Shown here piece by piece: positions 34,424-34,600 of a DNA stretch of 64,000 nucleotides; position 1 is the stretch's first letter, and each line of letters begins with the position of its first letter. The notes under the pieces were generated by a model, which did not search any database, was not told the DNA's origin, and was given only the letters and a program-made list of their open reading frames with translations. The stretch spans positions 5,305-69,304 of the forward strand of contig CALXCE010000002.1 of NCBI GenBank assembly GCA_944386725.1, given 5' to 3'. The stretch is from an uncultured Clostridia bacterium (lineage in GTDB: Bacteria; Bacillota; Clostridia; TANB77; CAG-508). Both the position numbers and the translations under genes were made by a program.

Positions 34424-34600
34424 CAAAACGCCAGCCAGTATACATATATATTATTTTTCATACCTTGTGTGTCGCAACCACTAATGTTGAAAGATAAATC
34501 TTTCAACGTGTGAAGGTTGCTCCAATCGCACTCGCCTTGCTCGTTTAGTCGCTTACTCGGTATTTCAAAATAATATATATGTATACTGGCTGGCGTTTTG
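34424..34600. mobile_element. MITE-like element: perfect 34-bp terminal inverted repeats (caaaacgccagccagtatacatatatattatttt) flanking a 109-bp GC-richer structured core
   Basis: 34424-34457 is exactly the reverse complement of 34567-34600. The core contains nested stems (gcaacc...ggttgc; gttgaaaga...tctttcaac). No ORF and no clear target-site duplication. Confidence 0.5.

Follow-up and report, generated by a model that had tools for sequence, protein, structure and literature searches.

A dispersed hairpin repeat with a conserved structured core and variable arms between genes of low-GC gut and rumen bacteria

The window analysed here (64,000 nucleotides, positions 5,305 to 69,304 of the forward strand of contig CALXCE010000002.1, assembly GCA_944386725.1, from an uncultured Clostridia bacterium) has a G+C content of 29% and carries sporulation-related genes, namely spoIIR, spmA/spmB and abrB. 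Between spmB and an rpn-like gene lies a long hairpin element (34408..34616, minus strand), which belongs to a previously uncatalogued family of dispersed hairpin repeats of low-GC gut and rumen bacteria. We read these repeats, with modest confidence, as non-autonomous mobile hairpins whose core acts as a single strand, either RNA or single-stranded DNA (ssDNA). On the minus strand the locus begins with spmB (34923-35450, Gate domain), followed by promoter P1 (34914..34886), a perfect sigma-70 site (TTGACA-17-TATAAT, 12/12) that points at the element. After about 270 bp of non-coding DNA come the hairpin, promoter P2 (34347..34375, also minus strand and also a perfect 12/12 sigma-70 consensus) and the rpn-like gene (33520..34330, minus strand; Pfam Transposase_31 / PDDEXK_2), with rlmH converging from the opposite side. 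Because promoter P2 stands between the hairpin and rpn, the hairpin is outside the rpn leader or 5' untranslated region. In the window a frameshift splits the rpn-like gene (162 + 122 aa), which is intact, with 335 aa, in the strains of contigs L035 and L036. A second rpn-like paralogue (3962-5185, minus strand; 407 aa, with a KEQET-type tandem repeat) is 46% identical to it over the aligned N-terminal 141 residues. The region of promoter P2 is homologous to the sequence upstream of the paralogue (5192-5248), so that a proximal promoter region is common to both genes. An association of rpn with the hairpin was rejected, as the paralogue has this promoter region only, without a hairpin.

The initial annotation had described the surrounding intergenic block as unusually long, about 600 bp (34340-34920); its measured length is 592 bp (34331-34922). 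An explanation was provided by sister species, which were defined by contigs with RlmH at least 90% identical and DNA 89-92% identical. In 15 such contigs the site is empty, in that rlmH is followed by a 280-bp spacer and then by spmB. Relative to them, the window holds an insertion of 1,176 bp (33468..34643, right boundary uncertain by about 10 bp), whose start directly follows the rlmH stop codon and in which rpn, promoter P2 and the hairpin are located. The ancestral spmB-rlmH spacer (34644..34922, minus strand) contains promoter P1 and is included in a 973-bp alignment that is 92% identical to the sister species. The length of the block is therefore explained by the ancestral 280-bp spacer together with the upstream end of the insertion, and the insertion of rpn and hairpin at this locus is recent. 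From the upstream edge of the insertion, the hairpin lies 17-27 bp inward. Because the block missing from the sister species also holds rpn, the hairpin's own insertion event is not isolated by the comparison, and the hairpin may have arrived together with rpn or separately. Since the nearest relatives lack the element, it is not a single copy conserved across relatives.

Promoter P1 is directed at about 230 nt of non-coding sequence, which include a perfect 15-bp stem (34655-34669 / 34749-34763). This stretch may be a small RNA gene, and it had no Rfam match and an unremarkable fold (z = -1.5). In a sister strain (L105, 2990-3150) another palindrome of about 150 bp, with arms AAGTTTAATCTATTTTTTAT / ATAAAAAATAGATTAAACTT and an unrelated core, is found between an MBL-fold gene and rlmH, which indicates that these genomes contain several kinds of hairpin repeat.

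The 177-bp element first described (34424-34600) was confirmed. It has a perfect 34-bp terminal inverted repeat, with CAAAACGCCAGCCAGTATACATATATATTATTTT at 34424-34457 on the plus strand and its exact reverse complement at 34567-34600; no match like it arose in any of 100 dinucleotide shuffles. Pairing continues outward with five imperfections, giving 50-nt arms (34408-34457 / 34567-34616) that are 90% complementary. Arm pairing thus gives the element a length of 209 bp (34408-34616), and homology with L055, its closest relative, together with a candidate target-site duplication (TSD) gives 203 bp (34411-34613). We describe it on the minus strand, the strand of the best-conserved core structure. 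On this strand the 5' arm (34567..34616) pairs perfectly over 34567-34600 and imperfectly over 34601-34616, and the 3' arm (34408..34457) pairs perfectly over 34424-34457 and imperfectly over 34408-34423, with a terminator-like U-run, GGCGUUUUGGUUUGG. The arms enclose a core of 109 nt (34458..34566, minus strand). This core had been noted as richer in GC and as holding nested stems and no open reading frame (ORF), and all three descriptions held. Its GC content is 44%, compared to 29% in the arms, 20% in the remaining spacer and 29% in the window. The fold z is -3.5 for the core alone and -14 for core and arms, and the region with its arms has a predicted fold of -91 kcal/mol. The ORFs that overlap it (39-53 aa) are merely mechanical, and the copies of the family vary by indels and variable loops, so that a conserved reading frame is absent.

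The same element was found in the same place in 10 independent metagenome assemblies from different samples, and therefore it is not an assembly artefact. Contigs also break at the element in Logan assemblies. We rejected these breaks as evidence for a repeat, because an inverted repeat of 34 bp, longer than the k-mer of that assembler (31), would suffice to cause them, and they are uninformative on copy number. Perfect inverted repeats that exceed the k-mer split the assembly graph, which explains why assemblies break at such sites. The 34-mer terminus itself, at up to three mismatches, has no copy in the window besides the two arms. In a search beyond the window, as had been proposed, a terminus 18-mer gave only nine single chance matches, mostly in lactobacilli and none in a relative of the source, among 185,579 GTDB species representatives. 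In viral contigs a terminus 16-mer gave three chance matches only, and core 24-mer, 22-mer and 19-mer sequences gave none. No match to the element was obtained by BLAST against 72,556 plasmids and 50,697 phage records.

The first lead to a family came from contig L027, which is wholly different from the window on the distal side and otherwise matches it apart from eight mismatches and an indel within the core's 5' half. At its positions 1-160 the window's rpn and proximal arm are joined to a diverged core, a GGGGAC repeat and the end of an unrelated ORF (...YQENVVLLPLDDTFENKCREQLLNRF*). We disfavoured this contig as an alternative state of the window locus and read it as a chimera or recombinant with a diverged second copy; whether it was assembled through the repeat or is a real recombinant, its sequence indicates a second family copy in that community. 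A scan of the metagenome collection with the core 19-mer GAGTGCGATTGGAGCAACC returned 58 loci, of which 57 were real copies. They came from human, shrew and marmot gut metagenomes, from rumen and from other samples, and the host DNA always had a GC content of 25-35%. A covariance model built on 31 copies (R1) makes the family searchable. It gave 60 matches at 38-134 bits, with complete copies at 73-134 bits, and it scored the window element at 108 bits (E 1e-25), the sole copy within the 64 kb.

The family is thus present in many copies, always between genes and in either orientation. The 11-kb contig L066 has three copies and a 27-kb contig has two (L047 and L094), and at least 20 copy-bearing contigs came from a single sample (ERZ1643246), many at 9-14x coverage. 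In L052 and L057 a common 150-bp unit is 98.7% identical within unrelated flanks, and the similarity ends at the base of the stem. A different arrangement was observed in L062 and L073, where the 5' halves of the element are different and its 3' half, together with the right flank, is 99.8% identical (500 bp); the pattern of identity suggests recombination between copies. Homologues of Rpn were searched by tblastn in the other 58 loci and none was found, so Rpn is a neighbour at the window locus and not a general partner of the family.

The strongest conservation lies in the core. On the minus strand, the consensus of the full copies reads ..UUUU GAARUACC GCGU(A)AGC GACCAAACGAGC-loop-GCGAGUGCGAUUGG A in the 5' half and GCAACC-(variable hairpin)-GGUUGC GACA(C)ACAA GGUAY AAAAAA.. 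in the 3' half. The proposed fold consists of the long stem, a purine-rich internal loop, the inner helix P1, a mini-hairpin, helices P2 and P3 and a joiner, and on this model the core is predicted to be a four-way junction. The 5' strand of inner helix P1 (AUACC, 34559..34563) pairs with GGUAU at 34460-34464, and four of its five pairs covary in the family, in the variants AUACC/GGUAU, ACACU/AGUGU, AUGCC/GGCAU, GUACC/GGUAC and ACACC/GGUGU. The mini-hairpin (34551..34558) has two pairs and the family form GC[GUAA]GC, with the loop GTAA in 19 copies and GTA in 12; in the window it reads GAGUAAGC, with a change from C to A. Helix P2 (34522..34548) is composed of an outer helix, CUAA/UUGG, and an inner hairpin, CGAGC-loop-GCGAG, in which there are tandem G-A pairs as well as two pairs that covary. 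The family consensus of the outer helix is CCAA/UUGG, with 12 one-sided C-to-U wobble changes across the family, and the 2-bp heart of P2 alternates between GC/GC, AC/GU and AU/AU. Its loop is often GNRA or GNA, GNRA being found in 10 of 15 four-nucleotide loops. Helix P3 (34474..34520), formed by the nearly invariant GCAACC (34515-34520) and GGUUGC (34474-34479), closes the variable hairpin (34480-34514), which in the window is a 9-bp stem, GUUGAAAGA/UCUUUCAAC, common only to L055. A conserved single-stranded joiner of 9 nt, GACACACAA (34465..34473), connects P3 with P1. All of these positions are on the minus strand. Five copies (L044, L062, L084, L094 and L095) have an additional hairpin domain, conserved and about 50 nt long (..CTGCATACTGCCACTGTAACAAGCAAAGCTTTAACAGTGGACAGCAAAAC..), which follows GCGACCA, between the mini-hairpin and P2.

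In a MAFFT alignment, the structure as first drawn, in which one helix (the mini-hairpin) was mis-drawn, had 84% of its cells paired, compared to 23-35% when the partners were slid by one to three columns. The mini-hairpin helix was corrected before the model was built, and the corrected helices are about 95% Watson-Crick. Six pairs show double changes, in 30 cells, a level that 0 of 500 shuffles reached, although this count is not a probability because the sequences are related. On the window's minus strand the core helices comprise 588 Watson-Crick, 18 G-U and 4 A-C pairs. The tolerance of G-U over A-C indicates that the minus strand is the constrained strand.

Outside the core only the AT-rich inner dozen bases of the arms are common, and farther out the arms are unrelated between subfamilies. 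Within each full copy, however, the arms pair over 21-55 bp, mostly by perfect Watson-Crick pairs. Compensatory changes maintain them as a helix. In L055, which has the window's variable hairpin and homologous arms, seven compensatory double substitutions separate its arms from those of the window. A similar picture was given by L072 and L085, which represent one locus in two related species that occur together. Identity is 81-88% in their far coding flanks, whereas the core is 95-100% identical (58/61 and 25/25) and the 23-bp inner arms, as read off the alignment, are identical; the variable hairpin is 72% identical and the outer stem has three compensatory double changes. This orthology implies that the element can be inherited vertically and can be retained more strictly than its neighbouring genes.

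Evidence for mobility also came from the long-armed copies. Direct repeats flank them, TACTTTCTATTG with 12/12 matches in L055 and GTTATATTT with 9/9 in L087, and with 8/9 in L053 and 7/8 in L042; they are 8-12 bp long, abut the arms in L087 and lie 2-4 nt away in the others. When flanks of different loci were paired as controls, a score of at least 9 was reached in 1.9% and a score of 12 in 0.1%. In the window itself the upstream copy of a candidate TSD, GTAGGAATAG (34614..34623, minus strand), matches the downstream copy, CTAAGAATAA (34401..34410, minus strand), at 7 of 10 positions, with an estimated chance of about 0.02. By analogy with L055 and L087 this repeat could be a decayed TSD, but the match is suggestive only; the TSD that had been looked for is thus imperfect at the window locus and perfect in two of its relatives, L055 and L087. 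Many of the short-armed copies lie inside a second, outer inverted repeat, often a GGGGAC-type doublet resembling REP sequences, so that their true ends may be farther out.

A separate REP/REPIN-like repeat of about 45 nt, GGGGACGTTTCTTTTTGCACATTTTTGTGAATTTAGGGACA, is present in the window at 16200-16245 (plus strand), 16280-16324 (minus strand) and 21189-21231 (plus strand), and also at 33485-33500. Both an inverted doublet and a lone unit occur. In other genomes, many of the hairpin-core elements have related GGGGAC units at their flanks, and one such unit precedes the variant copy of L027.

These features raise the question of whether the family is an ordinary MITE, or miniature inverted-repeat transposable element, that is, an internally deleted insertion sequence (IS) in which the core is a subterminal sequence for transposase binding or regulation and no folded strand has a function. 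All full copies have terminal inverted repeats (TIRs) in the form of arms of 21-55 bp; the family is multi-copy in unrelated contexts and independent of them, intergenic and neutral in orientation; the window locus is polymorphic for presence and absence, with empty sites in relatives; and the long-armed copies have TSDs of 8-12 bp. However, the termini are the least conserved part of the element, although TIRs are normally what a transposase reads, and double-stranded protein binding does not predict covarying core helices or the tolerance of G-U on one strand only. Moreover, no parent IS with these termini was found in the 185,579 genomes or in the plasmids and phages searched, nor any core split by a gene. 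We consider such a plain MITE unlikely. The initial annotation had left the choice between a MITE and a structured non-coding RNA (ncRNA), and a combination of the two is supported; the idea that the termini are conserved is not, since the core is conserved and the arms vary. Overall, the evidence for mobility and that for a structured strand combine, and MITE-like behaviour is partly supported.

The position of the copies suggested a further possibility. All full copies are intergenic, mostly tens to about 150 nt from the end of a gene, with an ORF overlapping a single armless remnant (L043). At the 3' base of the stem, 18 of 37 copies have a T-run of four bases or more, compared to 13% of background windows, and a matching A-run lies opposite in 14 of those 18. 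About half of the copies thus look like bidirectional terminators with a structured insert. In the window the T-run GUUUUGGUUUGG is within the outer, partly paired arm, and a simple terminator scan made no call there. If the element were merely a long bidirectional intrinsic terminator whose core has no separate function, the A- and T-tracts and the location just after stop codons, often between convergent genes, would be accounted for. Such a terminator does not need an asymmetric core of 100 nt with 85-100% identity across hosts and covarying helices, and half of the copies are without a T-run, which makes this explanation highly improbable.

We also considered an inverton, in which inversion of the core by a recombinase acting at the 34-bp repeats would switch rpn or an antisense transcript on and off. 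The element is upstream of a gene, and its perfect inverted repeats flank a weak outward promoter-like site (9/12). Nevertheless, all 10 assemblies that span the element have one orientation, rpn is served by a perfect promoter of its own, situated downstream of the element, and the family varies in the repeats at which a recombinase would have to act, with its copies mostly at the 3' ends of genes. The inverton was rejected as hardly credible on the grounds of the single orientation, the separate rpn promoter and the non-conserved repeats. The promoter-like site derives from an invariant segment of the core, GGTTGCGAC (34450-34477, minus strand), which provides a -35-like TTGCGA located 16-18 nt before an AT-rich, -10-like sequence of the 3' arm. 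In the window the combination TTGCGA / 16 nt / AATAAT would be a weak outward promoter facing rpn, and its -10 part is not kept in all subfamilies.

Covariation, GNRA loops, an optional domain and a conservation that exceeds that of coding flanks are also what would be expected from a stand-alone, non-mobile family of structured ncRNA genes, with the arms serving as a processing stalk like the stems of rRNA precursors. This is quite improbable, because near-identical 150-bp units occur in unrelated flanks, TSDs are present, some genomes have many copies and the empty site in the sister species is an insertion polymorphism at the window locus; in addition, no conserved promoter was found and the orientation relative to neighbouring genes is random. 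The proposed Rfam scan of the core brought no family. At the gathering threshold Rfam 15 had no match for the window element, and permissive searches (E<=10 for the window, E<=1 for five other copies) gave chance matches only, to CRISPR-DR17 with 18 bits and to MIR837 with 37 bits (threshold 117). ARAGORN found no tRNA-like gene at the element. Literature searches with conserved sequence strings gave no match, though the unnamed candidates of large catalogues might include the family, and keyword searches on Clostridial MITEs and structured multi-copy RNAs returned nothing specific.

Whether the single strand would be RNA or DNA is a separate matter. Frequent GNRA loops, a multi-helix junction with an optional domain and a long perfect stem that would serve as RNase III substrate or would stop transcription were counted for RNA. 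For ssDNA we counted an orientation indifferent to transcription, with no conserved promoter found, arms that are almost purely Watson-Crick and two mini-hairpins, GCGTA(A)GC and GCGAA(A)GC, of a kind that is very stable in DNA. It is a tentative possibility that the functional form is ssDNA and not RNA, in the manner of a priming site, a site like a single-strand origin or a recognition structure of HUH type. The orientation of the copies is independent of transcription units (co-directional with the flanking genes in 9, opposed to both in 9, between convergent genes in 8 and between divergent genes in 3), the Watson-Crick arms are combined with a strand-specific structure, and REP/REPIN-like GGGGAC units co-occur with the copies and often flank them. 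However, the copies have no preferred orientation with respect to GC skew (13 vs 15), and such a preference is usual for elements that act on the lagging-strand template; TSDs are unexpected for transposition of the IS200/IS605 or IS91 type; and neither a linked HUH gene nor a similarity to plasmid or phage origins was found.

Comparison with known repeats places the family close to, and apart from, several of them. The conceptually nearest is bcr1 of the Bacillus cereus group, a repeat of about 155 bp with 5-bp duplications, which is transcribed and in which compensatory changes keep a multi-stem fold (PMC3184786). It has been described as cruciform-like with two independent stem loops (PMC3184786, where Okstad 2004 and Klevan 2007 are summarised). 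Both bcr1 and the present family are intergenic repeats of Firmicutes of similar size, with short flanking direct repeats and no linked transposase. By description only, bcr1 differs in its fixed 5-bp TTTAT duplication, compared to 8-12 bp here, and in having no long stem of variable sequence, whereas the present family combines subfamily-specific arms with a core predicted to be a four-way junction.

The Correia (CREE/nemis, Neisseria) and ERIC/RUP elements are MITEs that form long hairpins when transcribed and in which promoters or terminators may be present (PMC3184786); a terminal TA motif is supported there for ERIC-type elements only. They resemble the window family in their size of 100-200 bp, their terminal inverted repeats and their dispersal between genes. 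What defines families of this kind is that their TIRs are conserved and their TSD is fixed (TA for Correia), whereas in the window family the TIR sequence varies and the centre is conserved. REPINs, which are mobilised by RAYT/TnpA-REP, are also palindromes between genes, and compensatory changes preserve their hairpin. In contrast to the window family, their arms are conserved REP units and their loop is free; they make no TSD, and no RAYT gene was found near any copy of the family.

Half of the family copies, with their terminator-like A/T-tract at the base of the stem, are reminiscent of SPRITE, a simple stem-loop about 105 bp long that is not known to have a conserved multi-helix core. SPRITE is a mobile repeat that resembles, and possibly acts as, an intrinsic terminator at gene ends (PMC3184786). 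Single-strand origins of the ssoA type and priming hairpins of the G4 type are likewise strand-specific, long imperfect palindromes with a conserved tip. The TAGCGA of the GTA-loop subfamily resembles the CS-6 motif, TAGCG(A/T). The copies of the window family differ in being chromosomal and multi-copy, without a bias in replication orientation and without an identified RS-B element. The family is set apart from all of those compared by its constant centre and variable ends. We know of no description of a four-way-junction core with variable duplications of 8-12 bp for bcr1, Correia, ERIC, RUP, REPIN or SPRITE.

Several observations weigh against the mobile hairpin with a core that acts as a single strand. 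Two DNA motifs of unusual stability, d(GCGNAGC) and d(GCGAAAGC), are matched by the mini-hairpins GCGTA(A)GC and GCGAA(A)GC; as these would be stable in DNA too, RNA and ssDNA are not separable by them. With their random orientation and with no conserved promoter of their own found, the copies would yield RNA of the right sense at some loci only. The conservation between L072 and L085 could result from selection, or from gene conversion by sister copies. As regards mobility, the TSD of the window matches at only 7 of 10 positions, and the short-armed subfamilies that were examined showed no convincing TSD. No recurrent protein family, transposase or other partner, was found beside the copies, and none of the family loci has core halves split by a gene, as in an autonomous version. 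The window copy has the lowest score among the complete standard copies and a broken pair in its mini-hairpin, and it may be decaying. Its own genome has one copy in 64 kb and a probable diverged second one, by way of contig L027.

In spite of these points, we still favour, to the modest degree given above, the reading as a mobile hairpin that is non-autonomous and has a core functioning as a folded single strand. The unit would move as DNA, with help supplied in trans, and the core would work as a folded strand of the window's minus-strand polarity. If this strand is RNA, it would be part of a read-through transcript, in which the long stem is exposed to RNase III or the transcript stops at the stem. 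If it is ssDNA, it would fold during replication or mobilisation. In the window, the hairpin between the unit of spmAB and promoter P1 and the rpn promoter would most likely serve as a transcription stop or insulator. The most concrete local effect that we predict is that transcripts from spmAB and promoter P1 are blocked before they reach the rpn promoter.

Small palindromic repeats are normally defined by their conserved ends, and this family is defined by a conserved, asymmetric and covarying centre. A bolder reading is that the core is an active module, such as a small ribozyme, a protein-recruiting RNA or an ssDNA structure for recognition or priming, with the arms as interchangeable packaging. 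We regard this as rather doubtful. If it is true, the family would represent a new class of mobile element that is recognised through a folded central domain and not through its termini. With the core read as RNA, the family would amount to an uncatalogued structured RNA that is widespread in gut Firmicutes, and with the core read as ssDNA it would point to an unrecognised way to mobilise or prime DNA.

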